This document shows, one piece after another, positions 6,093 through 35,900 of a stretch of DNA of 64,000 nt; the stretch's first letter is position 1; every line of letters starts with the position of its first letter. This DNA is from Candidatus Latescibacterota bacterium. Lineage in GTDB: Bacteria; Latescibacterota; UBA2968; UBA8231. The notes below the pieces were generated by a model, which was given only the letters and a program-made list of their open reading frames with translations, did no database searches and was not told where the DNA came from. The DNA is taken from contig CBDCXV010000011.1 of the NCBI GenBank assembly GCA_965223905.1, positions 1,280,001 to 1,344,000 of the forward strand, written 5' to 3'. Made by a program: the position numbers and the translations under genes.

Positions 6093-6095
6093 CGC

Positions 6096-7373
6096 TCAGT
6101 CTGATGGCTGGCAGCCCGACCCTCGGATGTAGGGAAGCGCTCCAAAACGCCCGGCCAGATATGCCTTTTCCAGGTTGTCAAAGCCCCTCCTTAGCCGGAA
6201 ATCGCTGAGCGGAAAAAGGCTGGTCTCCAGGCGTTCATTGCGTTCACAGAACCAGATCTGATCTGATCGCAACAAACCCTGATCGAGAATAGACGTATCG
6301 TGGGTCGAGAAAACGAGCTGTGCTCCGTGCGGATTCGCTTCCGGATCGTGGAAACGGTTGACCAGGAACCGGACAAGTTCCGGATGCAGATTGTCATGCA
6401 GTTCATCGAACACAATGACGTTGCCTTCAGCAAGGGAATGGAGCCAGGGACCGGCGAGAGCGAACATCTTTTGGGTTCCGTCCGACTCTTCGTCTATATC
6501 CAGTTCCGCGGGCCTACCGCCTATCGGTTTATGCTCCAAGAAGATATCCACGGTCTTTTTTCTCGTGAGTTCTTTGGCGACATGCTCTTTCAATTCCTTG
6601 GGCATATCTGCGGGAAGCATATCCGGGGAGAAATCCTTTTCGACGATCCGCATGCCGGCAACCGCAAGATCGGCTGCCGCGAGAAACTCAACGACGCCGG
6701 CTTTGTCGTTGTTGTTACAGTATTCCAAGGAAAAACCGGGGTTCCATCCACCCACGTCGGCGATGTGGAGCCGCTTGCGGAACCAGTCGAAAAGGGGTTG
6801 CATCTGAGTGCTGTTGAGCGAAACAGCCGTCGACAAGAACAGTGCTTGGGGACGGGTTGCTCTTCTCCAGACCTCACGGTCCCCCGTGAGCTTCCCGCCG
6901 AGCTTCCAGGAGGGTTCACCGGACGTCTCGCTGCGGCTTCTCTCGAACCAGACCTGCATCCTTCCGCTCGGCCACGCATAAAGCCACTCGCCGGTCACCT
7001 CTTGGGGTGTGGCGGAAAAGCCGTATTGGTATCGAACGCCATCCGCGATACACACTACCTCGAAAGATGTCGGCCGGTCGTTGCATGCGGGATCGAATCG
7101 GAACGTCGTCACGGGGAGTCCTTCGAGACTGCCGGAGGCTCGGAGCACGATGTCGTGCATCGTCTGCAGGCCCCTGAGGAGATTGGTCTTGCCCGAGGCA
7201 TTCGCACCGTAGATCGCCGCCGATCGCAGGAGCCGAATCGGTCGTGCGTCTTCGGAAAGATTGGGCACGACCACGTTGGAGTCACCATGCTTCTTGTCGT
7301 TGCCGGCGACGAGGCTGAGACGTGCCTCTTCCTTGATCGATCTGAAATTGGTAACCGAAAATTCAACAAGCAT
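6096..7373 (-). CDS. AAA_21/AbiEii-like ATPase (RloA-type partner of RloB)
   Basis: Motifs NFRSIKEE, Walker A YGANASGKTN, signature ESDGTQK, Walker B FDELHDNLHP, QLVFSTHD, DQIWF and YLAGRFGALP. Confidence 0.88.
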   Translation of the reverse strand: MLVEFSVTNFRSIKEEARLSLVAGNDKKHGDSNVVVPNLSEDARPIRLLRSAAIYGANASGKTNLLRGLQTMHDIVLRASGSLEGLPVTTFRFDPACNDRPTSFEVVCIADGVRYQYGFSATPQEVTGEWLYAWPSGRMQVWFERSRSETSGEPSWKLGGKLTGDREVWRRATRPQALFLSTAVSLNSTQMQPLFDWFRKRLHIADVGGWNPGFSLEYCNNNDKAGVVEFLAAADLAVAGMRIVEKDFSPDMLPADMPKELKEHVAKELTRKKTVDIFLEHKPIGGRPAELDIDEESDGTQKMFALAGPWLHSLAEGNVIVFDELHDNLHPELVRFLVNRFHDPEANPHGAQLVFSTHDTSILDQGLLRSDQIWFCERNERLETSLFPLSDFRLRRGFDNLEKAYLAGRFGALPYIRGSGCQPSD

Positions 7374-18070: not shown

Positions 18071-18492
18071 GCCCATACCCTGGCGGGCAGGGAAGCTCCC
18101 AGCCTAGGGACCGCTGAACCCGCGGAATTCTGGTAGCGGCACCCTGTTATGGCGATTATCTCGCCGGCGCGGCCGCGCTTGCGCCAGGGTTACGTCCACC
18201 GGCTCCAGCCCCCGGACCTGTTCATTCGAGGATCTCCGTCACCATGGCTCAGCAAAGGTAAGCCCGGCACGCCGTCATGAGCCTGCGAGCCGAGGCTGCG
18301 CGCAGCCGCCCCGATTTCATCCTGTTCGTGCCCCGAGGAGGAGGAGGCTATGGAAAGCCCCATACCCCGGCGCCGGAAGCAGCCGTACCACCTCCTGGGT
18401 CAAGGTCTGTGAGGCCACGGGCACTGCCGGGAACGGACCCCTGGTCGCCCGAGGCGACAGTGCACCATCGTAATCAATGGGGAGTTGAGTTC

Positions 18493-21400
18493 ATGAAGGC
18501 GGCAATCATCTGTTCCATCGCGCTGTTCGGGTCTTTCGGCCATGCAGAAGCCCAACCCCTGGTCGAGGGCCGGGTGCGGCTTTCATCGGGCCAACCCGCG
18601 GCCGGCGCCCAGGTGCGGCTGTTCGATCTGTCCGATCTGCGGCGCTCGCTGGCAACGACGACCGATGAGACCGGGTACTTCGCCCTGCCCTCCGGGGCAT
18701 TGCGGGTGCCCGCGGCCGGGGACCTCCACTTGGGGCCGAACTACCCCAATCCGTTCAACCCCTCCACAGTCATCCCGTTCCACCTGCCGGCCTCGACGCC
18801 GGTGCGGCTCGAGGTCTTCAACCTCCTCGGGCAGCGGATCGCCACCCTGGTCGACGGGGAGCTGACCGCCGGATATCACACGGTTCCCTGGAACGGCACG
18901 GACGCCGCGGGGCGGCCGGTCGCCGCGGGGGTCTATCTCTACAGGCTGAGCTTTCCCGGAGGGGCGGAGACCGGGTCGATGGTGCTGACCGACGGCCGGG
19001 CGGGTGCTCCGGGCGCTGGCGGGGGCGCTCCTGCCGCGGCCCCCGGGCAGACCGCGGAGTCCGCCCCGGTGTACGGGCTGACGGTAGCCGGACCTGGCCT
19101 GGAGGCCTTCGTAGACCCGGCCTTCCGGGTGGAGGCAGGCATGGCCCCGGTCGACCTCGTCGTCGAAGCCCTCGGGGGCAGGCCGCGCCCCAAGGCCGCG
19201 GCAGCCTCCGGGCTGTTGGGGGACGTCGACAACAGCGGTCTCGTCGATATCGTCGACGCCCTGCTCCTCGCCATGTACAGCGCCAACCCCTCCATCGTCA
19301 TGCCCAACGGCGGCGACATCTCCCTGGGGGACGTCAACCAGGACGGCACGACCGACTTCACCGACGCCTGGCTCGTCGCCAGATACAGCCTCGATCCGTC
19401 CGATCCCTTGCTACCCCCGGGGATCGGAGAGCCGCTGGCTCCCCCCGCGGCCCTGTCGCCGGACCCGTCCACCGTCGAGTTCGGGAACGACGGCGCCTGG
19501 CACGCCTTCACGGTCCAGGCCGGCGAGCCCGTCGTGGTGGTGGCAAACCCGGGGGAGGGCGCCCCGCTGATGGAGATCAGCGCCAGGAGCACCCGGTTCA
19601 GCTTCTGTCCGGCCGAAGCCGGCGACGCCGTATCGACCGAGGACGGCAGCTCCATCTACCTGTCCGGGTGCGAGGCCGGCACCGGCACGGTCGAGCTGCG
19701 GCGGGCGGAGGACCAGTCGGTCCTGCGGACCTACACCATCGAGATCGAGGATACCGGCGGCAGCCCCCCCGACCTCGTCGTCGACCTCCCTGCGGTCAGC
19801 GACAGCAGCCTGAATACCGGACAGTCCTTCACCCTGAGCGTCACCGTCCGCAACCAGGGGGAGAAGGAATCGGAGGCGACCACCCTGCGCTACTACCGCT
19901 CTACGAACCGAACGATCTCCAGCTGGGATACGGAAGCCGGCACCGGGGCGGTGGGTGCTCTTTCCGCGGCCGGCACCGGCACCTTGTCGATCTCCCTGAC
20001 GGCACCGGCGAGCCCGGGAACCTGGTACTACGGCGCCTGTGTCGAGAGCGTCAGCGGAGAGGGGAACACGCGGAACAACTGCTCCCGAGGGGTGAAGGTG
20101 ACCGTCGGCAGCGCCGACCTCATCGTCGAATCCCCTGCGGCCAGCGACGCCAGCCCGGACGCCGGGGCGGCCTTCACCCTGAGCGCTACGGTCCGCAACC
20201 GGGGAGACAGCCGCTCGACCCTGACGGTGCTGCGCTACTACCGCTCGGATGACGCCACGATCTCGACCAGCGACACGCAGGTCGGCACCGACGCGGTGAG
20301 CTCCCTTTCGGGAAACGCCACCAGCCCCGAGTCGGTGCGGTTGACGGCACCGGCGAACCCGGGAACCTGGTACTACGGGGCCTGCGTCAGGCCCGTGCCC
20401 GGAGAATCCGACACCGGCAACAACTGCTCCGCGGCGGTCGAGGTGACCGTCGCAAGCTCCGACCTGGTGGTCGAGTCCCCCGCGGTCAGCGACGGCAGCC
20501 CGGAGACCGGGGCCTCCTTCACCTTGAGCGCCACGGTCCGCAACCAGGGCAGCAGCCAGTCCGCCTCGACCGTGCTGCGCTACTACCGCTCGCAGGACGC
20601 GGCGATCTCCACGAGCGACGCACAGGTGGGAACCAACGCTGTGGGTGCCCTCCCCGCCTCCGGCACCAGCGCCGAGTCGATCTCCCTGAGGGCTCCGGCG
20701 AGCCCGGCAACCTGGTACTACGGGGCCTGCGTTTCCCCGGTGTCAGGGGAATCCGATACCGGGAACAACTGTTCGTCCGCGGTGGAAGTAACGGTCACGG
20801 CCCCGGAGCCTCGGCTCTCGAAGATGTACTGGACCGACTGGGGAACCGACAGGATTCGCCGCGCCGATCTCGACGGCTCTCAGGTGGAGGAGCTGGTTGC
20901 CGGGGCGGGGCTTGAGGGCCCGGACGGGCTGGCCATCGACGCGGACGGCGGCAGGATGTACTGGACCGACGCGGGCACGGCCAAAATCCAGCGGGCCAAC
21001 CTGGACGGATCCGGGGTGGTAGACCTGGTGACCTCCGGACTCACCATACCCGCGGGGATTGCCCTCGACACGGATGCCGGCAAGATGTACTGGGCCGACG
21101 CCGGCACCGGGAAGATCCAGCGCGGCAACCTCGACGGCTCCGGGGTCGAGGACCTGGTCACCCGGGACGACGGGCTGGCCTTTCCCACGGGGCTGGCTCT
21201 CGATCCGGCGGGAGGGAGGATCTACTGGACGGACCCCGGCACCGACAGGATCCAGCGCGGAAACCTCGACGGCTCCCAGGTGCAGGACCTCGTTACCAGC
21301 GGGATCGACAATCCATCGGCGATCGCCCTCGATTTGAACGGGGGCAGGATGTACTGGACCGACCGCGGCACCCGGAAAATCCAGCGGGCAAACCTCGATG

Positions 21401-21615
21401 GTTCTGGGGTGGAAGACCTGGTCCCCAGGGACCTGGATCTTCCCGGCGGGATGGCGCTGGACCTGCGTGGCGGAAAGATGTACTGGACCGACCGGGGCAC
21501 CGGAAGGATCCTGCGGGCAAACCTCGACGGATCCGGGGTCGAGGAACTCCTGACCAGCGCGGTCGGGTTGGAGAATCCGTCGGGGTTGGCCCTGGCTCCG
21601 GAGGCCGGGAATTGA
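18493..21615 (+). CDS. Secreted modular protein: FlgD/T9SS-CTD-like domain near N-terminus, dockerin-like, 3x CARDB, YWTD (LDLR class B) propeller
   Basis: Signal peptide MKAAIIC..AEA after GGAG RBS; NYPNPFNPST; GDVDNSG..GDVNQDG; three PDLVV..YYGACV..NNCS units; six YWTD-like repeats. Confidence 0.88.
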   Translation: MKAAIICSIALFGSFGHAEAQPLVEGRVRLSSGQPAAGAQVRLFDLSDLRRSLATTTDETGYFALPSGALRVPAAGDLHLGPNYPNPFNPSTVIPFHLPASTPVRLEVFNLLGQRIATLVDGELTAGYHTVPWNGTDAAGRPVAAGVYLYRLSFPGGAETGSMVLTDGRAGAPGAGGGAPAAAPGQTAESAPVYGLTVAGPGLEAFVDPAFRVEAGMAPVDLVVEALGGRPRPKAAAASGLLGDVDNSGLVDIVDALLLAMYSANPSIVMPNGGDISLGDVNQDGTTDFTDAWLVARYSLDPSDPLLPPGIGEPLAPPAALSPDPSTVEFGNDGAWHAFTVQAGEPVVVVANPGEGAPLMEISARSTRFSFCPAEAGDAVSTEDGSSIYLSGCEAGTGTVELRRAEDQSVLRTYTIEIEDTGGSPPDLVVDLPAVSDSSLNTGQSFTLSVTVRNQGEKESEATTLRYYRSTNRTISSWDTEAGTGAVGALSAAGTGTLSISLTAPASPGTWYYGACVESVSGEGNTRNNCSRGVKVTVGSADLIVESPAASDASPDAGAAFTLSATVRNRGDSRSTLTVLRYYRSDDATISTSDTQVGTDAVSSLSGNATSPESVRLTAPANPGTWYYGACVRPVPGESDTGNNCSAAVEVTVASSDLVVESPAVSDGSPETGASFTLSATVRNQGSSQSASTVLRYYRSQDAAISTSDAQVGTNAVGALPASGTSAESISLRAPASPATWYYGACVSPVSGESDTGNNCSSAVEVTVTAPEPRLSKMYWTDWGTDRIRRADLDGSQVEELVAGAGLEGPDGLAIDADGGRMYWTDAGTAKIQRANLDGSGVVDLVTSGLTIPAGIALDTDAGKMYWADAGTGKIQRGNLDGSGVEDLVTRDDGLAFPTGLALDPAGGRIYWTDPGTDRIQRGNLDGSQVQDLVTSGIDNPSAIALDLNGGRMYWTDRGTRKIQRANLDGSGVEDLVPRDLDLPGGMALDLRGGKMYWTDRGTGRILRANLDGSGVEELLTSAVGLENPSGLALAPEAGN

Positions 21616-21656: not shown

Positions 21657-21911
21657 TTGATGAACGAATCAGCAATACGACTCCGTATCGAGCCTTTGGA
21701 TGAAGGAGGGTTTCTCGCCACGAGCCCTGACGTTCCAGGCTTGGTTGCACAAGGTCGCAGCGTCACTGAAGTCGCGGAGATAGCACAGGGGCTGGCACGA
21801 AAGATTGCAGAGTCGTGCATTGAACACGGCGACCCCCTGCCGCACGCATTGAGATCACACCCGAAGGATCACACCGAAATCGATCTGATGGTACCCGTCA
21901 GCGTTCCGTAA
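21657..21911 (+). CDS. hicB: HicB-like antitoxin
   Basis: Motif EPLDEGGFLATSPDVPGLVAQGRSVTE; GGAG RBS; TAATG coupling to the hicA relic. Confidence 0.8.
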   Translation: MMNESAIRLRIEPLDEGGFLATSPDVPGLVAQGRSVTEVAEIAQGLARKIAESCIEHGDPLPHALRSHPKDHTEIDLMVPVSVP

Positions 21912-22248: not shown

Positions 22249-22470
22249 ACTTTTTTCCGGCCCCCAGGTCGACTGCTCGCTTGTTTCAATTCTTTGGAAT
22301 CTTATGCATCCCATGCAGGTCAGACATGAACCCTGTCGATCTGAAGCACGCTGAATGGTGTCGGTCTATGAGCCGGCCTTTCTGATTTTACGGTTTCGAT
22401 CTCCAGATTGCGTTTGACGCGCCCCACGCGTCCTGACTAGGATACAGGCCATGCAAAAGGTGAACCCTGC

Positions 22471-23829
22471 ATGATAACCAAAGGTGTCACGATGCTTCGA
22501 TCCCTTTCCCTTGTCCTGGTGTTGACCGCACTGGCTGCGCCGGCTGTGGGGCAAACCGTCCCCACCGCAGCCGCGGAAACCGACACAACCGACGTCTACG
22601 AGACGCGGAACAACCACGTGCTCGCCTTTCCGAAGTACGTCTGGAACGCCCTGGTGTTCCCGCTCGGCAAGTTCACCATCTGGCTCGAACGGAAAGAGGT
22701 TCTCCAGCGGCTGATCGAGATGTTCACCTTCCAGGACATCTTCGAGCTGTATCCGAACGCGACCCTGGGTGGGGAAACCGGAACCGCCGGCGGATACGAG
22801 ATGTTTTACACCAATCTGTTCGGACGCGGAAAAGGGATCTCGACCAGCCTGATCGCCAACCGCTCCAACTACAGCTGGGTCGTCCTGTACGAGGACCCGG
22901 GGATCGGCGGCGGTCCCTGGTACTGGAACGCCTCTGTCGAAGCGCTGAAGACGGGTTATGAGGACGCCACCATAAACGGCGAGCTGCGTGGGTCGGGGTC
23001 CCTGCTCGAGCACGAACAGAGAGATACCAGGATTTCTTTTGGGCGCCGCTCCAACTACGGCGAGACCGAGGGGTACGAACCGGAAGCGGTTCTCGAGCTG
23101 CGGCTGTCCCACGGCTTCCGCGAGTTCGCGGCAGGCGATCTCCACCCCGGCGACTTTCCCGGCCTGAACGAGTCGGTCAACCTGTTCTCGGTCGGCGCCA
23201 TGGCGGCCTTCGACGACCGGGACTTCAAGCCGCCGGCCGCCTCGATCAGCCTTCCGCTGAACTACCAGCTGCCCGGGCGGGTCCTTCTTTTCGCCGACGA
23301 CCGCTACTACAGCTTTCGCGACACCGCCTTCCCCGAGCGCGGAGGGCTCGCCCGCATCGAGGCGGATTACGCAGCCGGCTCCGAGGACGTCCGGTATTTC
23401 CGTTACACAGCCGAGCTCCAGCGCTTCTTCACCCTGTTTTTCAGGAACCGCATCCTCGGGATCAGGGCGCGGCTCGAGAAGGCGCATGCCCTGGGAGACG
23501 TCAGCTTCATCCCCTATTCCGACATGCCCACTCTGGGCGGCGATGGGCAGTTGCGCGGGTACCGGCGCGGATTCTTTCGCGACACGGGCAGCCTGCTGTT
23601 CAGCGCCGAATACCGCTACCCGATCTGGGACACCTGGAACGCCGTCCTGTTCTGGGACGAAGGGCAGGTGTTCGGCAAGTACGGCGACCTCGAACCGGGC
23701 GGGTTCGAGTACAGCTACGGCGCCGGCATCAGCGTGCGCACGGAGCGTTCCTTCCTGTTCGGGGTGCGCATCGCCCGCAGCAAGGAGGAGAAGGCGTTGA
23801 CCGGCTTCTCGCTGGAAAAGGAGTTCTGA
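22471..23829 (+). CDS. Omp85/BamA-TamA superfamily outer-membrane beta-barrel without evident POTRA domains
   Basis: Signal peptide; LGGDGQLRGY (VRGF/Y lid-loop motif), SAEYRYPI, LFWDEGQV, SYGAGI; terminal Phe. Confidence 0.82.
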   Translation: MITKGVTMLRSLSLVLVLTALAAPAVGQTVPTAAAETDTTDVYETRNNHVLAFPKYVWNALVFPLGKFTIWLERKEVLQRLIEMFTFQDIFELYPNATLGGETGTAGGYEMFYTNLFGRGKGISTSLIANRSNYSWVVLYEDPGIGGGPWYWNASVEALKTGYEDATINGELRGSGSLLEHEQRDTRISFGRRSNYGETEGYEPEAVLELRLSHGFREFAAGDLHPGDFPGLNESVNLFSVGAMAAFDDRDFKPPAASISLPLNYQLPGRVLLFADDRYYSFRDTAFPERGGLARIEADYAAGSEDVRYFRYTAELQRFFTLFFRNRILGIRARLEKAHALGDVSFIPYSDMPTLGGDGQLRGYRRGFFRDTGSLLFSAEYRYPIWDTWNAVLFWDEGQVFGKYGDLEPGGFEYSYGAGISVRTERSFLFGVRIARSKEEKALTGFSLEKEF

Positions 23830-25505
23830 TGGGCTCTCGGCGAGTCGCCATGCTGCTGGTTCCTGTGCTGTTGCTGCCGATCGCCGGCATGGCCGCCCCG
23901 GAGCTGACCGCCGATCCCGTCAAGTGGTTCGACGCCGACAACAAGCCGGTCCCCGAGCCGGCCGAGGCCGAGGAGAACAAGGTCTGGGACTTCATTGACA
24001 AATCCTCCTTTTACCAGGTCGGCAAGGTGCTGGACCTGGGGTGGACCGCGCGTCGAGTCGGAGACCTCCTCGGCGTCGTCGGACCGCGCCAGGCCGACAA
24101 CGTCAACGCCCTCGACGAGGTCCCCAACTCCTCCTGGTTCACCAACCGGCACTTCCTGCTGCCGATGACCCTGGAAGAGCTGGCGGAAGGACCCGGTTTC
24201 GCCGAAGCCGACGACAGCGGCCCCTGGGAGATCGTCGCCGGCAAGTTCGAGGGGATCACCGCGGGTTTCACCATCAAGGACGCCTCGAAGCGGTACTTCC
24301 TGCTCAAGTTCGATTCCGAAGGGAACAACGAGATGGGATCCGGGGCCGAGGCGGTCGCCACCAAGGTGCTGTACGCGGCCGGCTACAACGTTCCCCACAA
24401 CTCCGTCCTCTACTTCGATCCCGGACAGCTGCAGATCGGACCGAAGGCCAGGGTGCCGGCGAAAGACGGCGGCAAGCGGCCGATGACCCCGAAGGACCTC
24501 CGGGAAATCCTCGCCCACATCACCCCGCAGCCCGACGGCACCCTGCGCTGCCTCGCCAGCCAGTTCCTCACGGGAAAACCGGTCGGCGTCTTCAACTACA
24601 ACGGGCGACGCAGGGACGACCCCAACGACCGGGTCGACCACGAGCACCGGCGCGAGCTGAGGGGGCTGCGCGTCATCGGCTCCTGGCTCAACGATGCCGA
24701 CCGCCGGGCGGCCAATACCCTGGACATGTACGTGACCGGGGCGGACGGCCGCCGCTACGTCCGCCACTACCTGATCGACATGGGCTCCGCCCTCGGCAGC
24801 GGCAGCTGGAGACCGCACCAGCCCAAGCACGGCAACGAGTACATGGTGGACCCGCGCACGATCTTGCGGTCGCTGGTATCGCTGGGGTTCTACATGAAGA
24901 AGTGGGAAGAGCCGGTGCCGATGCCGTACATCTCGCTCGGATACTTCGAGAACGAGACCTTCCGTCCCGGGGGCTGGGTGCCGGACTATCCCAACCCGGC
25001 GTTCGAACGCTGCACCAACCGGGACGGGTACTGGGGCGCCAAGATCGTCATGGGCTTCCGCGACGACGAAATCCGCGCCATGGTCGAGAGGGGGCGCTAC
25101 TCCGATCCGGGCGCCACCGCGGAGCTGACCCGGCTCCTGGCCGAACGCCGGGACATGATCGGGCGCTACTGGTTCGAGCGCGTCAACCCGCTGGATCGCT
25201 TTGAAGTGGAAGACAGCCGGCTTCGGTTCGTCGATCTCGCCGTGGAGGGGGAGCTGGTACCGCGCGAATCGCGGCAGTGGCGGTATGCCGTTGTCGATGC
25301 AGACGGGGACCGTATTGCGGAGCCGCGTGTTATATCCGAGCCGGTCATCCCGATCGGCGAGGAGGCGCGGGCGGGGCAGTTCTTCGGCTACCGGATCCGG
25401 AGCCGCAGCGGCGAGAGCGGGAAGTGGAGCAAGAAGACCACGGTGTTTCTATACAAGCACGAGGACGGCCGCCTGCAACTGGTGCGGATCGACCGGGAAG
25501 AGTGA
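23829..25505 (+). CDS. Exported protein with atypical kinase-like fold (HipA/PI3-4K/CotH-like motifs)
   Basis: Signal peptide (MLLVPVLLLPIAGMAA); GKFEGITAGF, YFLLKFD, GAEAVA, WLNDADRRAAN and YLIDMG in kinase order. TGATG coupling with the Omp85 gene. Confidence 0.6.
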   Translation: MGSRRVAMLLVPVLLLPIAGMAAPELTADPVKWFDADNKPVPEPAEAEENKVWDFIDKSSFYQVGKVLDLGWTARRVGDLLGVVGPRQADNVNALDEVPNSSWFTNRHFLLPMTLEELAEGPGFAEADDSGPWEIVAGKFEGITAGFTIKDASKRYFLLKFDSEGNNEMGSGAEAVATKVLYAAGYNVPHNSVLYFDPGQLQIGPKARVPAKDGGKRPMTPKDLREILAHITPQPDGTLRCLASQFLTGKPVGVFNYNGRRRDDPNDRVDHEHRRELRGLRVIGSWLNDADRRAANTLDMYVTGADGRRYVRHYLIDMGSALGSGSWRPHQPKHGNEYMVDPRTILRSLVSLGFYMKKWEEPVPMPYISLGYFENETFRPGGWVPDYPNPAFERCTNRDGYWGAKIVMGFRDDEIRAMVERGRYSDPGATAELTRLLAERRDMIGRYWFERVNPLDRFEVEDSRLRFVDLAVEGELVPRESRQWRYAVVDADGDRIAEPRVISEPVIPIGEEARAGQFFGYRIRSRSGESGKWSKKTTVFLYKHEDGRLQLVRIDREE

Positions 25506-25528
25506 GCGCAAGGAGAAAGGAATAGGGA

Positions 25529-26977
25529 ATGGACGTTCTGGGGTTCGAGTTTTTCCAGGGTTTCATGCATTACCTCGGCGTGCTGCAGTGGCCGCTGGTC
25601 GTCGTCTTCCTGCTGTTCATCGCCTGGCAGATACGGGGTTTCGCGCCGGAGGAGCGGCTGCAGACCGGCCTGATGTTTTCCTACTTCTTCCTGGTGATCA
25701 CGACCTTCTGGATCCTCAAGCCGATCAAGAAGGGGCTCTTCATCAGCTACTACAAAGAGGTCGGCGGCTTCGACCTGCTGGGCTGGTGGCAGTTCGACGC
25801 GGCGCAGGCCGAGCTGCTTGCCAAAGTCCTCAACATGGCGGTCGCCGCCGCGGCGGTCGCCGTCTTCACCCTTCTCGCCCGCTCCTTCCGTCGCCAGCAG
25901 CTCACCTTCATTCTGTCGGGCTTCTTCATTCTCTGTTACCTGGCCTACAGCTTCCTCCTCGACAATGCCGGCGGCGGCACCGTCTGGACCTTCTACCTGT
26001 TCGGCGACCTGTTCAGCACGTTGATGGTCGCCACCTTCTTCGCCTTCCTCAACGACAGCGTCGATCCTTCCTCCGCCAAGCGGCTCTACGGGCTGATCGG
26101 TCTCGGGGGGGTTTCGGGAGGTTTCTTCGGCAGCGCCGTCGTCGGCGTCAACGTCAAGAGCCTCAGCCCGGCGCTGTCCATGTGGTTGTGCCTGGCGATC
26201 GCCGTCGCCATCGCGCTTGTCGCCCTGGCCGCGGGCCGGGTAGTAAGCCGCAAGCTGGCGGCGCAGGAAACCGGGGGAAGCAAAGCGGAGGATGCATCCG
26301 ATTCTCAAGCCGCCCAGACTGAAGATCAGCCCCAGGGGAATCCGGCCTGGGAAGGTGCGCGGCTCGCCCTGCGCTCGCGGTATCTACTGTCGGTGGTGGC
26401 CATCGTCGGTCTCTACGAAATGGTCTCCACCATAATGGATTTCCAGTTCACCTCGACGGTGCTCCACTACCTCGACGGCCCGCAGATCGGAGAGCATTTC
26501 CCGCGCGTGTTCACGTTCACCAACATGGTCGCCCTCGTCGTTCAGCTGTTTCTCACCAGCTTCGTGATGACGCGGTTCGGTGTCGGCCCGGCGCTGCTGT
26601 TCCTTCCGGTTGCTGCCCTTCTGGGTTCGGCAGGATTCCTGATCGCCCCGGTGCTCCTCCTCGGGAGCCTGTTGAACACGACCGACAACGGCTTCAGCTA
26701 CTCGATCAACCAGTCGGCGAAGGAAGCCCTCTACGTTCCCACCACGCGGGACGAGAAGTACAAGGCCAAGGCTTTCATCGACATGTTCGTGCAGCGGTTC
26801 GCCAAGGCACTGGCCGTCGGCCTGAGTCTTTTGATTACGACCCTGTTTGCAGGGTATTCGAGCATTCGCTGGTTGTCGCTGGTGACCGCCGCCATCCTGT
26901 TGTTGTGGATCCTCGCCGCCCGTTACGCAGGCCGGAGTTTCCGCGAGAAGGAGGAGGGGGCTGCCGCGTCGGTGTGA
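25529..26977 (+). CDS. NTT/Tlc (ATP/ADP translocase, Npt1/Npt2-like) MFS transporter
   Basis: About 12 TMs; motifs WILKPIKKGLF, SAKRLYGLIGLGG, YSINQSAKEALYVP and KYKAKAFIDMFVQRFA. Confidence 0.82.
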   Translation: MDVLGFEFFQGFMHYLGVLQWPLVVVFLLFIAWQIRGFAPEERLQTGLMFSYFFLVITTFWILKPIKKGLFISYYKEVGGFDLLGWWQFDAAQAELLAKVLNMAVAAAAVAVFTLLARSFRRQQLTFILSGFFILCYLAYSFLLDNAGGGTVWTFYLFGDLFSTLMVATFFAFLNDSVDPSSAKRLYGLIGLGGVSGGFFGSAVVGVNVKSLSPALSMWLCLAIAVAIALVALAAGRVVSRKLAAQETGGSKAEDASDSQAAQTEDQPQGNPAWEGARLALRSRYLLSVVAIVGLYEMVSTIMDFQFTSTVLHYLDGPQIGEHFPRVFTFTNMVALVVQLFLTSFVMTRFGVGPALLFLPVAALLGSAGFLIAPVLLLGSLLNTTDNGFSYSINQSAKEALYVPTTRDEKYKAKAFIDMFVQRFAKALAVGLSLLITTLFAGYSSIRWLSLVTAAILLLWILAARYAGRSFREKEEGAAASV

Positions 26978-27378: not shown

Positions 27379-28302
27379 TCAAACATGGACACCGGGGATC
27401 GATGGTTCTCCTGAGGGGTGTTCGAGCGAGAAATGGCGGTAGGCAAACTCTATCCGGTCGTTCTTGCCGAAGGCGTCGACGATTTTCCCCACGATCTCGC
27501 TGGAGATGCGTTCCCGCTCCACCGCAATGGACTTGTACCGCAGCCGCATCGTTATGCCGGAATGAAAGAATTCAGCACGGACGAACGGAGTCTCTCCGGT
27601 CTCCTCGATGATCTCCGGGGTCACCTCGGAGGCGCAGTCGATCAATGTCTGTTCCGACAGCCGGTATTCCGACTGATAGGAGATACGGACCGGAACCTCG
27701 TCGAGTATGTACTTGGCTTCCTGGGAAACTGCGTAGTTGGTGACCATCTGGTCGAACAGTACGGCATTGGGGATAAGAACCGCTCGATTGGATTTTTCTT
27801 CCCCGCCGATAGTCCCGCCCACTTCCCCCAGAAGAATATGGGTGGGACTTATGTCCAGCACGTCCCCCCGCACTCCCTGAAGTATGATCCGGTCGCCGAT
27901 CTGGAAGGGCCGTTTGATCATAACCATGAGCCAGGCGGCCACTCCGGTGACCGGCCGTTGGAGAGACCAGCCCAGGATCATGCTGAGGAAAGCAGCGCTT
28001 ATCCCCATGGCCGCGAATGAACCGGACAAGCTGACGACAATCAGAATGATCCCCGCCAAAAGAAAGGTGTACTTCAACAGGGAGTGGACCCGGTGGATCT
28101 GCACCTCCCGGCGATTCTGGGCTCGCATGGCTCCCAGGACCACACCCTTGACCGTTTTGTAGATGATATAAATGACGACAAGCGCCAAAGTTGCAGGCAG
28201 GAGGTATAGTATCACTTCAAGGATATCCCTCACCAGTTCAGGGACATGGTGGGAGACCCATCCCTCGGTGCTGTTCAGCCAGTCAGTTATTACCTGTGGC
28301 AT
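27379..28302 (-). CDS. mscS: Small-conductance mechanosensitive channel (MscS family)
   Basis: TM region, then RPFQIGDRI, GDVLDI and IPNAVLF. ATG 28302 is preceded by a purine-rich RBS. Confidence 0.85.
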   Translation of the reverse strand: MPQVITDWLNSTEGWVSHHVPELVRDILEVILYLLPATLALVVIYIIYKTVKGVVLGAMRAQNRREVQIHRVHSLLKYTFLLAGIILIVVSLSGSFAAMGISAAFLSMILGWSLQRPVTGVAAWLMVMIKRPFQIGDRIILQGVRGDVLDISPTHILLGEVGGTIGGEEKSNRAVLIPNAVLFDQMVTNYAVSQEAKYILDEVPVRISYQSEYRLSEQTLIDCASEVTPEIIEETGETPFVRAEFFHSGITMRLRYKSIAVERERISSEIVGKIVDAFGKNDRIEFAYRHFSLEHPSGEPSIPGVHV

Positions 28303-28697
28303 CGGTCGGTTCCTCTTTCCTCTTCCTTGGCGATGGTAAAATGCCTTTGGTACCTCGGTTTCATCGGGATGCCGCGCCAAAGGCATCCCGGTCCACGGCC
28401 GGTCCGGCTCCCCCCTTCCCTGACGCGCCGTCCGCGATCCTTTGATCAAAAAAGAAGCCTGTCATCTGCAAGCTATCCGGACAGAAAAGCGCGTCAACGC
28501 ACCCGGGGTTCTGGTTCCGTGCCCAGGAAGGCCGCTGGCTTTACCGACGATCCGGATGCTCACATCGAGACAATCCGGTGCCTGATCCCCTCAAGGGTAA
28601 ACCTGCCCATGCCCTGGCTACCATCCTCAACAGGGCTTCCGGTGAGTCGGGGCGGGATCCGCGTCTGTAGGGGAAGCGGCTTCGCTGGAATTAAAAG

Positions 28698-28761
28698 GGA
28701 CAGTAACTGTCCGCATTGAGATTTTTTTTTACATGCTGGACGCAACGGACACCCCCTGTCC
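28698..28761. promoter_or_regulatory. Two palindromic boxes GGACA-N5-TGTCC, putative WYL-regulator operator
   Basis: GGACAGTAACTGTCC (28698-28712) and GGACACCCCCTGTCC (28747-28761) directly upstream of the WYL gene, with a T9 tract between them. Confidence 0.6.
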
Positions 28762-28798
28762 CCTTGGAGCCCATCTTTATCGTCGGGAGGATGAAGCT

Positions 28799-29794
28799 AT
28801 GCTCATTGCCGATGCTATCCACAAGGCGGATCGACTCGAACAGATAAAGGTACTGTTCCGGCGGCGGCCCGAGGGGGTAGGGACCGGTGAAATCGCCCGG
28901 CTGTTGGGGGTCAGCCAACGGACCGCCCGGCGCTATGTGAAGGAGCTGTCGGAGCACGGACGGCTGCCGGTGTACCGGGAAGGCCGTGTCTGGAAGTTGG
29001 TGGAAGGCGGGCACATCGACCTGCTTCGCCTCCAGCTGAACCTCGACGAGGCCCTCTCGCTCTACCTGGCGGCGCGGATGCTGTCCGCCTACAGCGACAA
29101 GCACAATCCGCACGTGGTAGCATCCCTGCTCAAGCTCGCGGCAACCTTGCCCGACGCCATCGGGGCGCACGTCGAGCAGGCGGCCGTGGCGGTTTCCCAA
29201 AGACGGCTTGCCCCGGACTACATGAAAGTCCTCGAAGGTCTCACCCGGGCCTGGGCCGGCCGGCGGCAGGTACAGATCGTTTATCGCGATCCCATCACCG
29301 GGGCGCGCTCCGAGCGCCTGTTCGACCCCTTTTTCATCGAGCCTTCCTTCTTGGGCTATTCCTGCTACGTGTTCGGGTTCGATCACTTCCGCCGGGCGAT
29401 CCGCTCCTTCAAGGTCGAGCGGCTGGAAGAGGTCGAGGTGTTGGATTCCCGTTTCGAGCCGTTGCCGGATTTCGATCCCTACGACTACCTCAGGCACGCC
29501 TGGGGGATCAGGGGCGGCGACGAGGTGGTGGAGGTGAAATTGCGGTTTTCCATGAACGCGGTCTATCGGGTGAATGAATCCGACTGGCCGGGAGTGATCG
29601 CCCGGGAGGAAGACCGGGAGGGGCGTTGTACGCTGACGTTCCTGGTCAATCACGTTCTGGAAATCAAGTCCTGGATCAGGGCATGGGGACCCGAGTGCGA
29701 GGTGCTGGGCCCGGAGGAGTTGCGCCGGGAGATCGGGGAGGAGATGAAGGCGGCGACGGAACTGTATACGAACAACCCGGGAGTAGGGAGCTGA
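28799..29794 (+). CDS. wHTH-WYL-WCX transcriptional regulator
   Basis: HTH EIARLLGVSQRTARRY; WYL core with YVFG..RSFKVERL; WCX SWIRAWGPECEVLGPEELR; GGGAGG RBS. Confidence 0.9.
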   Translation: MLIADAIHKADRLEQIKVLFRRRPEGVGTGEIARLLGVSQRTARRYVKELSEHGRLPVYREGRVWKLVEGGHIDLLRLQLNLDEALSLYLAARMLSAYSDKHNPHVVASLLKLAATLPDAIGAHVEQAAVAVSQRRLAPDYMKVLEGLTRAWAGRRQVQIVYRDPITGARSERLFDPFFIEPSFLGYSCYVFGFDHFRRAIRSFKVERLEEVEVLDSRFEPLPDFDPYDYLRHAWGIRGGDEVVEVKLRFSMNAVYRVNESDWPGVIAREEDREGRCTLTFLVNHVLEIKSWIRAWGPECEVLGPEELRREIGEEMKAATELYTNNPGVGS

Positions 29795-29944: not shown

Positions 29945-32900
29945 ATGAAGAATGCAATCGGCGGTCTCATGTGGCTGTTGTCGAGCCTGCACGCAGGAGC
30001 GGAGCCACTTGTGGAGGGGCGGGTCAGGCTGGCCTCGGGGGGACCGGCGGCCGGGGCGCAGGTGCTGCTGTTCGACCTGACCGACCTGCGCCTGGCGCCG
30101 GTCGCTGCGACCACCGATGAAGCGGGGTACTTCGCGCTGCCTTTCGGAGGGTTGCGGTCATGGGTGGCGGTTTTTCCGGAGCGGTTCGAGTTGGGGCAGA
30201 ACTATCCCAATCCATTCAATCCTTCCACCATAATCCCCTACCAGCTCCCGGCCTCGACCCGGGTGCGGCTCGAGATCTTCAACATCCTTGGACAGCGGGT
30301 GACGACCCTGGCCGACGGAGAGCGGGCGGCCGGCTTTCACACGGCTCGTTGGCACGCCACCGATTCCGCGGGGCGCGCCGTGGCCGCCGGGGTCTACTTC
30401 TACCGGCTGAAGGGCGAGGGGGTTCATCAGACCCGGCGCATGGTGTTGATCGACGGGCAGGCGGGGATTCCTTCGGCAGGGCCGGGCGGTCCGCCCGCCG
30501 CAGTCCTGGAGGCAGAGGAAACAACCCCGGTCTTCGGATTGGCCGTCTCGGGTGCGGGGCTTGTCCCCTACGTCGACCCCGCCTTCCGGGTGGAGGCGGG
30601 CATGGCTCCGGTGGACATCGTCGTCGAAGCTTCCGGCGGGATCCTGCATGCGAAGGTGGCCTCAGGCGGGATCCTGGGCGACGTCGACAACAACGGCCGG
30701 GTCGACATTTTCGACGCCCTGCTGGTTGCCGTGTACAGCGCCAATGCCAACCTCGTCATGCCGAACAACGGCGATATAACCCTCGGTGACGTCAACCGGG
30801 ACGGCCAGACGGATCTCACCGACGCCTACCACATCGCCACCTACACAGTGGATCCCTCCGATCCGACGCTGCCCGCAGGAATCGGGGAGGCCCTGGTCCA
30901 AGGGACGGCATCGCTGTCCCCCCTTCCCTCCACCGTCTCCTTCCAGGACGACGGAGTCTGGCACCGGTTTACGGTCCAGGCCGGCGAGCCGATCGTGGTG
31001 GTGGCCAATCCCACCGGAACCACCCCGCGTGTGGAGATCAACACCAGCAGCGGCTCCAATTACTGTCCGGCGGAAGCCGAGGACGACCGGGCGCGCCAGG
31101 ACGGTGAGGAAGTCTACCTCGCCGGCTGCTCCTCTGGTACGGGTACAGTTGAACTGCGACGGGCGTCCGACCAGACCGTCCTGCAAACCTATACCTTCAC
31201 GATACAGGGACAGGGAACAGGGGGAGGGGGAGGCGGCAATGCCCCCGACCTGATTGTCGAGACCCCTACGGTCACCAACAGCAGCCCGACCGCCGGCGCC
31301 TCCTTCACCCTGAGGGCCAGAGTCCGAAACCAAGGTGCGGCCCGGTCCAGCTCGACCACCCTGCGCTACTACCGCTCCACCGACGCGACGGTTTCCACCA
31401 GCGACACCCAGGTCGGCACCGACCTCGTGAGCAGCCTGTCCGCTTCCCGAACCAGCTCCGAGTCGATCAGCCTCCGCGCTCCCTCCAGCGCCGGAACCTA
31501 CTACTACGGCGCCTGTGTCGAGAGCGTCAGCAGCGAAACCAATACCGGGAACAACTGCTCCGCAGCGGTGACCGTAACCGTGGGCGCCGCACCGGCCCCG
31601 GATCTCCTCGTCGATGCTCCTACGGTCAGCAACAGCAGCCCGGCTGCCGGCGCCTCCTTCACCCTGAGGGCCACCGTACGAAACCAGGGTGCGGCCCGGT
31701 CCGGCTCAACCACCCTGCGCTACTACCGCTCCACCGACGCCACCGTTGACTCCAGTGACACCGAAGTCGGCACCGACCTGGTCAGCAGGCTGTCCGCTTC
31801 CCGAACCAGCTCCGAGTGGATCACCCTACGCGCACCTTCCAGCGCCGGTACCTACTACTACGGGGCCTGTGTCGAGAGCGTGAGCGGGGAAACCAATACC
31901 GGAAACAACTGCTCCGCTGCCGTAACCCTAACCGTGGGCGCCGCACCGGCCCCGGATCTCGTCGTCGATGCCCCAACGGTCACCACCAGCAGCCCGGCTG
32001 CCGGGGCCTCCTTCACCTTGAGGGCCACCGTCCGCAATCAGGGCGCCGCCCGGTCCAGCTCGACCACCCTGCGCTACTACCGATCCACCGACGCGACCGT
32101 TTCCACCAGCGACACCCAGGTCGGCACCGACCCGGTGAGCAGCCTGTCCGCTTCCCGAACCAGCTCCGAGTCGATCAGCCTACGCGCCCCCTCCAGCGCC
32201 GGGACCTACTACTACGGTGCCTGCGTCGAGAGCGTCAGCGGAGAAACCAATACCGGAAACAACTGCTCCGCTGCCGTGACCGTAACCGTGGGCGCCGCCC
32301 CTGCCCCCGACCTGGTCGTCGATGCCCCTACGGTCACCAACAGCAGCCCGGCTGCCGGGGCCTCCTTCACCTTGAGGGCCACCGTCCGCAACCAGGGAAC
32401 CGGGCGGTCCGCCACGACCACCCTGCGCTACTACCGCTCCACCGACGCGACGGTTTCCACCAGCGACACCCAGGTCGGCACCGACCCGGTGAGCAGCCTG
32501 TCCGCTTCCCGAACCAGCTCCGAGTCGATCAGCCTGAGCGCTCCCTCCAGCGCCGGGACCTACTACTACGGTGCCTGCGTCGAGAGCGTCAGCGGAGAAA
32601 CCAATACCGGCAACAACTGCTCCCCTGCCATAACCGTAACCGTGGGCGCCGCACCGGCCCCGGACTTGGTCGTCGATGCCCCTACGGTCACCAACAGCAG
32701 CCCGGCTGCCGGGGCCTCTTTCACCCTGAGGGCGACCGTCCGCAACCAGGGAACCGGGGGGTCCGCCACGACCACCCTGCGCTACTACCGATCCACCGAC
32801 GCGACGGTCTCCACCAGCGACACCCAGGTCGGAACCGACCCGGTGAGCAGCCTGTCCGCCTCCAGGACCAGTGCCGAATCGATCTTCCTCTCCGCCCCGT

Positions 32901-35900
32901 CGAGCGCGGGCACCTACTACTACGGCGCCTGCGTCGTCAACGTCAGCGGGGAAAGCAATACCGGGAACAACTGCTCCTCCGCAGTGACCGTAACCGTTCC
33001 CGGGACCGTCACTCAGCCAACACCCCAACCCGGGGCGTCGAAGCTGTACTGGTCGGATTGGGGGACGGACAAGATCCAGCGGGCCAACCTCGACGGCTCC
33101 GGGGTCGAAGACCTGATTTCCGGTGCCGGACTCAACGGTCCGGACGGGCTGTCTCTTGATCTGGCCGGCGGCAAGATCTACTGGGCGGATGCGGGCACCA
33201 ACAAGATCCAGCGGGCCAACCTCGACGGCTCCGGGGCCGAAGACCTCGTCACCGGCCTGGGGATTCCATACGGCCTGGCCCTGCACGTGGCCGGCGGCAA
33301 GATGTACTGGACCAACCGGCAGACGAACAAGATCCAACGGGCCAACCTCGACGGCTCCGGGGTCGAAGACCTCGTCACCAGCGGCTTGACTTTCCCCGGG
33401 GCGCTGGCACTCGACGCAGCCGGCGGCAAGATGTACTGGACGAACTCGGGCGCGACGAAGATCCAGCGGGCCAACCTGAGCGGCTCCAATGTCGAAGACC
33501 TCGTCACCAGCGGCTTGAGCAGTCCCACCGGGCTGGCACTAGACGTAGTCGGCGGCAAGATGTACTGGACCGACCGGGGCACGGACAAGATCCAGCGGGC
33601 CAACCTGAGCGGCTCCAATGTCGAAGACCTCGTCACCAGCGGTCTGAACACCCCCAGTGGGCTGGCCCTCGACGTTTCCGGCGGCAAGATCTACTGGGCC
33701 GACACGGGTACGGACAAGGTGCAGCGGGCCAATCTCAACGGCTCCGGGGTCGAGGACCTTCTCACCAGCTCCGACGGACTGGTCGATCCATCCGGTATCG
33801 CCATCGGGGGAACCGCCCAAACCGGGTCCGGAGGAGGAGGAGGAGGAGGAGGCGCAACGCAGACTCGGACGGCGTTTGAATCATCCACGCCATCAGGTTA
33901 CACCCGAATAACTCTGGACGATGGGGGTCGGGTTTGGGGAGTTCCTACAAAGTACACCGCTGATTCCAACACCGGTACCGTGGCATATATGGTGCTGGGA
34001 GGACTGAAGGAATGCGCCTTCGCAAATGCGGAAGCCGACCGGCAGAGCAAAGTGTACGTCAAGACACAGTCATTGGGGCACCTGTCCAATTATGAGTCGG
34101 ACACGGTGTGCCGGAAGACCAGTACCCAGTATTCTTCTTGGCCTGGGCTTCGGATCACACATATACGGTTTTTCGACGAAAGCAGTCCCACCAATGTCAG
34201 TGAGGCTGTTTACAATGCCTCAACCGGTCAAATAGAGCTTGGTGGCGGGGGTGATGGAGGCGGTGGTAGTAATGGCGGTGGTGACACCTCCCCGGCCCCC
34301 GACCTGGTCGTCGATGCCCCTACGGTCAGCAACAGCAGCCCGACCGCCGGCGCCTCATTCACCCTGAGGGCCACCGTCCGCAACCAGGGTGCCGCTCGGT
34401 CCGCCACCACCACCCTGCGCTACTACCGCTCCACCGACGCGACCGTTTCAACCGCAGACACCGAGGTCGGCACCGACCCGGTGACCACCCTGTCCGCCTC
34501 TCGCACCAGTTCGGAGTCGATCTTCCTTTCCGCCCCATCGAATGCCGGCACCTACTACTACGGGGCCTGCGTCGAGAGCGTCAGCGATGAGAGCGATACC
34601 GGAAACAACTGTTCCTCAGCCGTGACCGTTACCGTGGGCGCCGCACCTGCTCCTGACCTGATTGTCGATGCCCCTACGGTCAGCAACAGCAGCCCGACGG
34701 CCGGCGCCTCTTTCACCCTGAGGGCCACCGTCCGCAACCAGGGTGCCGCTCGGTCGGGCTCGACCACCCTGCGCTACTACCGCTCGACCGACGCGACGGT
34801 TTCCACCAGCGACACCGAGGTCGGCACCGACCCGGTGAGCACCCTGTCCGCTTCCCGAACCAGCTCCGAGTCGATCTTCCTCTCAGCCCCATCGAATGCG
34901 GGCACCTACTACTACGGCGCTTGCGTCGAGAGCGTCAGCGACGAAAGCGATACCGGGAACAACTGCTCCGCAGCCGTGACCGTAACCGTGGGCGCCGCAC
35001 CTGCCCCGGACATAGTGGTTGGTACGCCTCGCGCAAACCCCAGCACTCCGACCGCGGGAGCCTCCTTCATTCTGAGCGTCACAGTAGAAAACCAGGGCAA
35101 TGGTCAGGCGGCGGCGACTACCCTGCGCTTCTACCGCTCGACCGACGCGACGATCTCTTCCAGCGACACACAGCTGGACACGGACTCGGTGCCACTTCTT
35201 GGCACAGGTGGAGGGTACGTTGCAAATACCAATCCGACTGCCCCTTCCAGCGCCGGAACCTACTACTACGGTGCCTGTGTCGAGAGCGTCAGCGGAGAAA
35301 CCAATACCGGAAACAACTGCTCCGCAGCCGTGACATTAACCGTGGGCGCCGCACCGGCCCCCGATCTCGTCGTCGATGCCCCTACGGTCACCAACAGCAG
35401 CCCGACGGCCGGCGCCTCCTTCACCCTGAGCGCCACCGTCCGCAACCAGGGTACCGGTCGGGCCGGCTCGACCACCCTGCGCTACTACCGATCCACCGAC
35501 GCGACGGTTTCCACCAGCGACACCGAGGTCGGCACCGACCCGGTGAGCAGCCTGTCAGCCTCCAGGACCAGCTCCGAGTCGATCAGCCTCAGCGCTCCCT
35601 CCAGTGCCGGCACCTACTACTACGGCGCCTGCGCCGAGAGCGTCAGCGGGGAAAGCAACACCGGGAACAACTGCTCCGCAGCCGTGACCGTAACCGTGGG
35701 CGCCGCCCCAGCCCCGGACCTGGTCGTCGATGCCCCTACGGTCAGCAACAGCAGCCCGACTGCCGGCGCCTCCTTCACCTTGAGTGCCACGGTCCGCAAC
35801 CAGGGAACCGGGGGGGCTGGCTCGACCACTCTGCGCTACTACCGCTCCACCGACGCGACGGTTTCAACCGGAGACAGCCAGGTCGGCACCGACCCGGTGA

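Follow-up and report, generated by a model that had tools for sequence, protein, structure and literature searches.

According to the textbook view, the periplasm is free of ATP, and the processes of the outer membrane draw either on energy that the inner membrane relays to them (TonB, Lpt, Lol) or on the energy of folding (BAM). In eukaryotes, the secretory lumen, in which kinases of the Fam20C type act, also requires an ATP/ADP exchanger (SLC35B1/AXER) for such enzymes. The present work deals with a locus of a Candidatus Latescibacterota bacterium (GenBank assembly GCA_965223905.1, contig CBDCXV010000011.1, positions 1,280,001 to 1,344,000 of the forward strand; this stretch of 64,000 nucleotides is referred to as the window). 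Three adjacent genes of this locus encode an Omp85 barrel without POTRA domains, a protein with a predicted export signal and the fold and catalytic residues of atypical kinases, and a carrier of the NTT/TLC family. It is proposed that these genes may constitute an envelope phosphorylation module in which the carrier would provide the kinase with ATP.

Several described systems resemble the kinase-like protein in structure. Fam20C and other Fam20 kinases (4kqa, 5xom, 5yh0) share with it an atypical kinase fold located outside the cytosol; in contrast, the protein of the window has another N-terminal extension, an FN3 tail and no match to PF06702, and would act in a bacterial periplasm with an Omp85 partner. 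Among the kinases of the CtkA/HipA type (3akj, 4pu3, 5k98), CtkA is a secreted bacterial enzyme and was the top match in one of the structural searches described below; however, HipA kinases are cytoplasmic toxins, none of them is known to have a barrel or carrier partner and no HipA-family Pfam match was found here. The superfold is also common to CotH (5jda), PI4KIIalpha (4pla) and MavQ (7m7a), which act where cytosolic ATP is available and to whose families the present protein shows no sequence-level membership. As some of these structural matches are lipid kinases, the substrate may be a lipid.

Regarding the carrier, fusions of NTT with HEAT repeats (NTT-HEAT) are stated to be widespread in free-living bacteria, their function being unknown, in a report whose main text contains none of the words "kinase", "Omp85" and "periplasm" (Major, Embley and Williams, 2017; PMC5381601). 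The window carrier resembles the NTT/TLC carriers (TC 2.A.12) in scoring over the PF03219 cut-off, in its 12 hydrophobic segments, in its likeness to solved carriers and in the presence of NTT-HEAT genes in related loci; it differs from them in falling far under the cut-off of the NTP/NDP exchangers and in the outward direction proposed here. Omp85 proteins of the "noNterm" type were reportedly treated by Heinz and Lithgow in 2014. With these the barrel of the window shares 16 BamA-like strands, a short periplasmic N-terminus and the lid-lock motifs, but it has in addition a fixed kinase-fold partner. The function of noNterm Omp85 proteins is described as poorly understood in a 2024 study of Leptospira paralogs, the main text of which does not contain the word "kinase" (PMC11358297). 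No description of the gene set or of the kinase family was found in the literature searched, subscription journals and supplementary files lying outside its scope.

The coordinates of the three genes, as well as the coupling of the first two by a TGATG stop/start overlap, agree with what the initial annotation of this DNA had reported (Table 1). A spacer of 23 bases containing AGGAGA precedes the ATG of the carrier gene. A terminator scan gave no site in the gaps among the three genes (its eight matches were not above those of shuffled sequences), which, together with the TGATG overlap and the short spacer, argues that the three genes are one operon. Regarding the promoter, a single sigma-70-like site was detected at 22414-22443 and, with 0.8 expected by chance, was discarded as evidence. 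Two metatranscriptome runs of one study, labelled as sponge metagenome, contain contigs that are 95-99% similar to portions of each of the three genes; none of these contigs bridges a gene junction with at least 31 letters on each side, and several bins have no cover. Since contigs of RNA libraries are not proof of transcription, they are a weak hint that the three genes are transcribed. That the gene set stands above chance follows from its recurrence in dozens of loci of other genomes, which is described below.

Table 1. Features of the operon in the window (positions in the window, 5' to 3'; the PAP2 examples are given as related locus and positions therein)
Feature	Position	Strand	Description
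Omp85 barrel gene	22471..23829	+	452 aa; POTRA-less ("noNterm"), 16-strand BamA/TamA-like barrel
TGATG stop/start overlap, Omp85 and kinase-like genes	23827..23831	+	one shared base
Kinase-like gene	23829..25505	+	558 aa, predicted to be exported, without Pfam/NCBIfam family
Signal-peptide-like N-terminus of kinase-like protein	23829..23900	+	residues 1-24
N-terminal extension, conserved	23901..24179	+	residues 25-117; low pLDDT when modelled alone; predicted Omp85 contact
Atypical protein-kinase-like core	24180..25184	+	residues 118-452; VIA-align, Foldseek
Gly-rich hairpin GKFEGITAG	24240..24266	+	residues 138-146, between strands 133-141 and 144-150
LLKFD, candidate ATP-binding Lys160	24300..24314	+	end of strand 156-160
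DADRRAAN, catalytic-loop-like, D291-x4-N296	24693..24716	+	residues 289-296, between helix 280-287 and strand 296-303
LIDMG, DFG-like, candidate Mg-binding Asp317	24771..24785	+	residues 315-319; end of strand 309-317
FN3-like beta-sandwich, C-terminal	25185..25466	+	residues 453-546; pLDDT >90
NTT/TLC-family carrier gene	25529..26977	+	482 aa, 12 hydrophobic segments, divergent
PAP2 examples in related loci	L074:3474-4421, L052:3528-4466, L059:1561-2529 and 20 further loci

Neither Pfam nor NCBIfam assigned the kinase-like protein to a family at E<=0.1, and it matches none of the sequence-family profiles for Fam20 (PF06702), HipA, CotH and PI3_PI4_kinase. In the ESM Atlas, unnamed clusters reached 0.98 and named kinase families merely 0.79-0.81, which is the level of a lead. 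Relatives of the protein are numerous: of the 8000 candidates that were scored in a word-indexed search, at least 3221 had E<=0.001, "hypothetical protein" being the sole name among them, and an exhaustive HMMER search of representatives at 50% identity gave 2879 clusters at E<=0.001 (807 at E<=1e-30).

The kinase-like fold postulated in the initial annotation, which had named Fam20, CtkA, CotH and HipA as the families to compare, was recovered by two structural methods. The AlphaFold2 (AF2) model, built with 27 relatives in the alignment, had a mean predicted local distance difference test score (pLDDT) of 78.5 and a predicted TM-score (pTM) of 0.83. When it was compared with the Protein Data Bank (PDB) by Foldseek, Fam20C/Fam20 structures came out on top (E 5.8e-5 to 5e-3), and PI4KIIalpha and CtkA ranked next. 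VIA-align, which is independent of Foldseek and was run over 48,161 chains, placed CtkA at Z 12.5 (221 residues, root-mean-square deviation (rmsd) 4.2), Fam20C at 12.1, DrFam20C1 at 11.9, Hydra Fam20 at 11.4, CotH at 11.3, actin-fragmin kinase at 10.3, PI4KIIalpha at 10.1, HipA at 9.7, HipT at 9.6 and MavQ at 9.0. In this method, models without a true match often reach a top Z of 7-8; the top matches of the kinase domain, all of them atypical kinases of one superfold, lie above that background (Z 9-12.5 over 212-265 residues). The model displays the organization of the protein-kinase-like (PKL) superfold, with two lobes, an N-lobe sheet bearing the Gly-rich hairpin and a helical C-lobe, and the order of these elements fits. 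Considering that the protein has this superfold and no sequence membership in any kinase family, it represents a new family of a known superfold. Residues 453-546 matched about 40 FN3/cytokine-receptor domains in VIA-align (Z 8-10, rmsd 2.1-3.1 over 79-92 residues).

All the motifs that had been quoted for this protein occur in its translation, including LLKFD (residues 158-162) and GAEAV (residues 172-176) besides the other three of Table 1, and their key residues are conserved. The alignment comprised 243 full-length sequences, that is, the window protein and 242 of 269 relatives, 27 outside the range of 480-650 aa having been dropped. In the Gly-rich hairpin, G142 is conserved in 235 and G146 in 221 of these sequences. 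The candidate ATP-binding K160 is present in 235, and its partner E174, located in helix 169-183, is Glu or Asp in 235. D291 and N296 of the catalytic-loop-like motif are conserved in 239 and 236 sequences, respectively, and D317 in 237, so that the Lys, Glu, Asp-x4-Asn and Asp of atypical kinases are each maintained in 235-239 of the 243. The positions of K160, E174, D291, N296 and D317 in the model are those of the expected kinase elements. Besides the kinase set, the family has invariant residues of its own (D264, D267, H271, R275 and H313). The protein may thus be an active atypical kinase capable of phosphotransfer.

A signal peptide had also been claimed for this protein, and the evidence bears this out. 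A hydropathy scan gave a single hydrophobic segment at residues 6-24, and by a crude pattern match 224 of 235 Met-starting relatives have a hydrophobic run within the first 60 residues. This run ends in a lipobox-like motif in 80 of those 224, and many relatives are therefore probably lipoproteins. A Tat signal, considered on account of an "SRR" near the N-terminus, was ruled out, as the twin Arg is not conserved in relatives.

The first gene encodes a protein that matches the Pfam family Omp85 (PF01103; E 4.3e-17, 63.1 bits vs a cut-off of 24, residues 115-424) and shows no POTRA match at E<=0.1 in Pfam, in agreement with its previous description as a POTRA-less Omp85. It has one hydrophobic segment, which is signal-like (residues 8-26). 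In the AF2 model (pLDDT 82) two periplasmic helices (52-74 and 77-84) precede a 16-strand barrel, for which Foldseek found BamA (E 7e-14) and TamA (E 4e-12). As the barrel lacks POTRA and has merely helices 52-84 ahead of it, it can be assigned to the noNterm subgroup and not to BamA, TamA or TpsB. The lid-lock motifs of noNterm Omp85 proteins are given as (L/M)RG(W/Y) on loop 6 and FxDxG on strand 13 (PMC11358297); in the window barrel they read LRGY (361-364) and FWDEG (394-398). Among 27 barrels G398 is invariant, and F394 and D396 are conserved in at least 90%.

The pairing of barrel and kinase is both a genomic and a structural observation. Of the 69 related loci whose flank measures at least 1300 bp, 63 have the Omp85 gene directly upstream of the kinase gene and in the same orientation. 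Five of the other six (L019, L021, L022, L023 and L041) have no barrel gene, and in L058 the barrel pairs with a second kinase copy. A model of the complex of barrel residues 27-452 and kinase residues 24-558 scored 0.71 (runs 0.71, 0.74 and 0.70), the best control being 0.00; a score of this level was attained for 116 of 157 solved complexes and for 2 of 215 mismatched pairs, counts that hold roughly, since custom-made alignments were used. Contact agreement among the runs was at least 77%, with a partner pLDDT of at least 87. In the most confident contacts, kinase helix 345-356 is paired with residues 383-391 and 327 of the barrel, and kinase residues 65-70 with its residues 51-55; residues 32-74 and 90-99 of the kinase extension belong to the interface as well. 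By strand order, the barrel turns at the interface (324-327 and, within 381-393, residues 384-389) and helix 52-74 are periplasmic, and the kinase therefore sits under the barrel in the model. Altogether, the complex model supports the binding of barrel and kinase to each other.

The same genome contains a second Omp85 and kinase pair about 65 kb downstream, beyond the window, in which the kinase is 81% identical and the genes again overlap by one base (L003 5219-6652 and 6652-8328). A gene for a DUF2279 lipoprotein lies upstream of this pair on the opposite strand.

The third protein scores above the cut-off of the TLC family PF03219 (E 1.5e-19, 70.7 bits vs 21). A crude hydropathy scan gave 12 hydrophobic segments, arranged as 7 + 5 about a long loop (234-284). 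Its sequence resembles those of two solved structures named "ADP,ATP carrier protein 1", which are 9j3n (E 1.5e-12) and 9j3j (E 2.6e-10), and the match takes in a C-terminal K-x-K-x-K-A-x-ID stretch. It is the sole PF03219 match detected in this genome, in which an NTT-HEAT gene was accordingly not detected either; as the genome is 93.6% complete, absence is not proven.

Linkage of NTT and kinase genes was analysed in 78 related loci from named genome records, the NTT being counted in the 60 loci with at least 3 kb downstream. An NTT-family open reading frame (ORF) was detected in 39 of these 60 loci, in 33 of them downstream on the same strand and in 28 immediately adjoining; a long form was found in 27, a short form in 30 and both in 18. 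All five of the long NTT neighbours tested carry TLC and HEAT repeats (HEAT above the cut-off in four), and the long forms are thus NTT-HEAT fusions. Linkage was observed in records labelled Latescibacterota, Gemmatimonadota, Planctomycetota, Calditrichota, Cytophagia, Rhodothermales/Salinibacter, Balneolaceae, Nitrospira, Ignavibacteria, Zixibacteria and KSB1, amounting to about ten phylum labels, and the module is also present in records named Nitrospira moscoviensis and Salinibacter altiplanensis as well as in metagenome-assembled genomes (MAGs) from groundwater, soil and sea. The carrier gene may be found downstream, upstream or on the opposite strand, and this varied gene order argues for selection for proximity. 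In loci L042 and L043, from two Latescibacterota chromosomes, the kinase match (5908-7167) ends at residue 394 and a second fragment (8746-9246) takes it up about 1.6 kb further on, and the gene looks as if it had been split by an insertion.

Sporadic NTT linkage would have spoken against the proposal; the counts of both linkage and co-occurrence show it to be frequent. The five genomes examined among those without an NTT in the locus all hold one elsewhere; in Nitrospira moscoviensis about 8 kb separate it from the barrel gene, upstream of which it is located. Among 121 evenly sampled Nitrospirota genomes, an NTT was present in both genomes with the kinase vs 7 of 119 others (Fisher p 0.005), and among 301 Bacteroidota genomes in five of six with the kinase vs 14 of 295 others (Fisher p 3e-6); in these five the NTT is within about 5 kb on the same contig. 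The pooled figures are 7 of 8 kinase genomes vs 21 of 414 others (Fisher p 2e-8). A distant branch of the kinase family, which matches residues 89-548 and lacks the N-terminal extension, was also noticed (G386:C1:1245080-1246420 and G126:C16:198141-199460); G386 is the sole kinase-bearing genome of the samples without an NTT match.

Another recurrent neighbour is a BLAST cluster of ORFs of about 310 aa, present in 23 of the 78 loci, in which the three members tested were all PAP2 phosphatases. The PAP2 protein of Nitrospira moscoviensis has a signal peptide and intact KX6RP, PSxH and SRX5HX3D motifs. In Nitrospira, the PAP2 gene precedes the pair in the same orientation, and in the relatives of Salinibacter it is divergent. 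There is no PAP2 neighbour in the window, and the genome has merely distant PAP2 genes elsewhere. In 13 loci (L074:7649-8614 and 12 others), which belong to Nitrospira except for one labelled Gammaproteobacteria, a lipoprotein-like ORF of about 320 aa without Pfam or NCBIfam family follows the kinase or the NTT-HEAT gene.

Based on the computed gene order and coupling, folds, catalytic residues, export signals, linkage, co-occurrence and complex model, a mechanism can be put forward, to which we give an even chance: an envelope kinase docked under a barrel, supplied with ATP by the carrier, would phosphorylate an envelope component. The single operon would encode the whole module, with the Omp85 barrel in the outer membrane. 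The signal peptide would direct the kinase-like protein out of the cytoplasm, in many relatives as a lipoprotein. By means of its N-terminal extension and a C-lobe helix, the protein would then dock to the barrel from the periplasmic side. In the inner membrane the carrier may swap cytoplasmic ATP (out) for periplasmic ADP (in), the outward direction being expected from the gradients of a free-living, ATP-making cell. By exporting ATP, the carrier would give the kinase a phosphate donor in a compartment normally held ATP-free. An outer-membrane protein, or else a lipid or glycan, could be the phosphorylated component, and the PAP2 enzyme of many lineages could remove the phosphate mark; the linkage of NTT-HEAT and exported PAP2 in many relatives indeed points to a reversible mark on an envelope component. 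An endosymbiont has reportedly been proposed to export ATP to its host through an NTT-type carrier. Release of ATP upon addition of external ADP is described for NTT carriers expressed in Synechococcus and E. coli (PMC11632070). A broader version, which we consider slightly less probable than its negation, would extend this economy to at least 10 diderm phyla, where NTT and NTT-HEAT proteins would export ATP and retrieve ADP, exported kinases bolted under POTRA-less Omp85 barrels would write phosphate marks on a component of the outer membrane and exported PAP2 enzymes would erase them.

A number of observations weigh against this proposal. A profile of 27 relatives of the kinase gave 0 matches at E<=10 among PDB sequences, and the whole-model TM-scores of the Foldseek matches were merely 0.26-0.34. 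Regarding the ATP/ADP translocase of the initial annotation, membership in PF03219, the 12 segments and the likeness to 9j3n and 9j3j upheld the family. Against TIGR00769 (NTP/NDP exchange transporters) the carrier scored 62.4 bits, the cut-off being 387.2. It thus belongs to a divergent branch whose substrate could differ and is not readable from membership. No NTT was present within about 6 kb in 21 of the 60 loci, and the second pair of this genome has no adjoining NTT, TypA/BipA coming next. NTTs occur in 21 of 414 genomes without the kinase, one of the 8 kinase genomes has none, and the p values of co-occurrence overstate independence, because related genomes share traits. ATP could moreover leak from the periplasm through porins. 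In the complex model, a contact patch of the barrel (260-267) lies, by strand parity, in a low-confidence extracellular loop, which would reflect either an imperfect docking model or an N-terminal extension inserted in the barrel.

Some of these points suit other explanations. One or more carriers could take up nucleotides, or some other phosphorylated solute, out of the periplasm; before this uptake the kinase-fold protein and PAP2 would process or bind extracellular nucleotides, which the barrel would admit unless it serves to anchor the enzyme. In nature, all characterized bacterial NTTs act as importers (Major et al., 2017; PMC5381601), PAP2 includes the class A acid phosphatases with their action on nucleotides (one neighbour had a weak PhoC match, E 2.5e-4), and the sponge label of both RNA libraries suggests that the organism may live with a host. 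Such scavenging is nevertheless unlikely: Omp85 barrels are not known as solute channels, a periplasmic kinase would still require a phosphate donor, and the catalytic Asp, Asn and Asp, which go beyond binding residues, are conserved in at least 236 of 243 relatives. The set is also carried by records of a cultured free-living nitrite oxidizer and a named halophile. Consequently, the scavenging of host nucleotides by a symbiont, raised in the initial annotation as an alternative, is rejected as a general role on grounds of this taxonomic range (Nitrospira moscoviensis, Salinibacter altiplanensis and MAGs from groundwater, soil and sea). A secretion pair, in which the barrel would export the kinase to the surface or the medium and the kinase, like CtkA of H. 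pylori, would have its targets outside the cell or in a host, seems a little less probable again. Barrel and partner are translationally coupled and predicted to bind, the best structural match is the secreted CtkA, loop 260-267 lies in the interface as if the extension entered the lumen, and lipoproteins encoded beside noNterm Omp85 genes are discussed as possible cargo in Leptospira (PMC11358297). However, the barrel lacks POTRA and its partner lacks a TPS domain in Pfam, which does not correspond to two-partner secretion; the most confident contacts are on periplasmic turns and the periplasmic N-terminal helix, and the lid-lock motifs are those of closed BamA-like barrels. The linkage to an inner-membrane NTT would moreover go unexplained, unless the carriers supplied ATP anyway.

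The tight 1:1 pairing with Omp85 (63 of 69 loci, with a confident predicted interface), in an outer membrane that has no known local energy source, would also agree with a motor or switch, in which the kinase fold would use ATP delivered by the carrier to power the barrel in insertion, lipid movement or gating. We regard this as improbable, considering that kinase-fold proteins are rarely mechanical ATPases and that a PAP2 neighbour in 23 of 78 loci fits a written-and-erased mark better. Least credible of all, and very improbable in our opinion, is a pseudokinase or scaffold that binds no nucleotide, with NTT linkage reflecting shared regulation alone; the lack of sequence-level likeness to any kinase family agrees with it, but the full catalytic set is conserved and the linkage survives rearrangements over about ten phylum labels.

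Other genes of the window deserve mention. Two very large exported proteins, of 1112 and 2396 aa, are encoded at 18277-21615 and 29945-37135. The former contains CARDB repeats, six LDL-receptor class B (YWTD) repeats and FlgD-Ig and dockerin-like domains according to Pfam, and the latter is similar to it by eye; such eukaryote-like repeats are consistent with the sponge label of the RNA runs. A gene for an MscS-type channel (27379-28449, reverse strand) is convergent with the end of the operon and stands beside one for a WYL/WCX-domain HTH regulator (28733-29794, forward strand). Just upstream of the operon, an ORF of 84 aa (21657-21911) without Pfam match resembles HicB-type antitoxins by eye.

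Returning to the envelope kinase supplied by a carrier, a conserved module in which carriers of the ATP/ADP type accompany an exported kinase with intact catalytic residues would, if true, break the rule of the ATP-free periplasm. No earlier case would exist of a native route by which the periplasm receives ATP, or of energy-dependent enzymology on the periplasmic side of the outer membrane. Such a module would also provide a function for two large orphan groups, the NTT and NTT-HEAT proteins of free-living bacteria and the POTRA-less Omp85 barrels, and would add a new kinase family of at least 2879 clusters at 50% identity. Since records bearing the names of the cultured organisms Nitrospira moscoviensis and Salinibacter altiplanensis carry the set, the module is directly testable.

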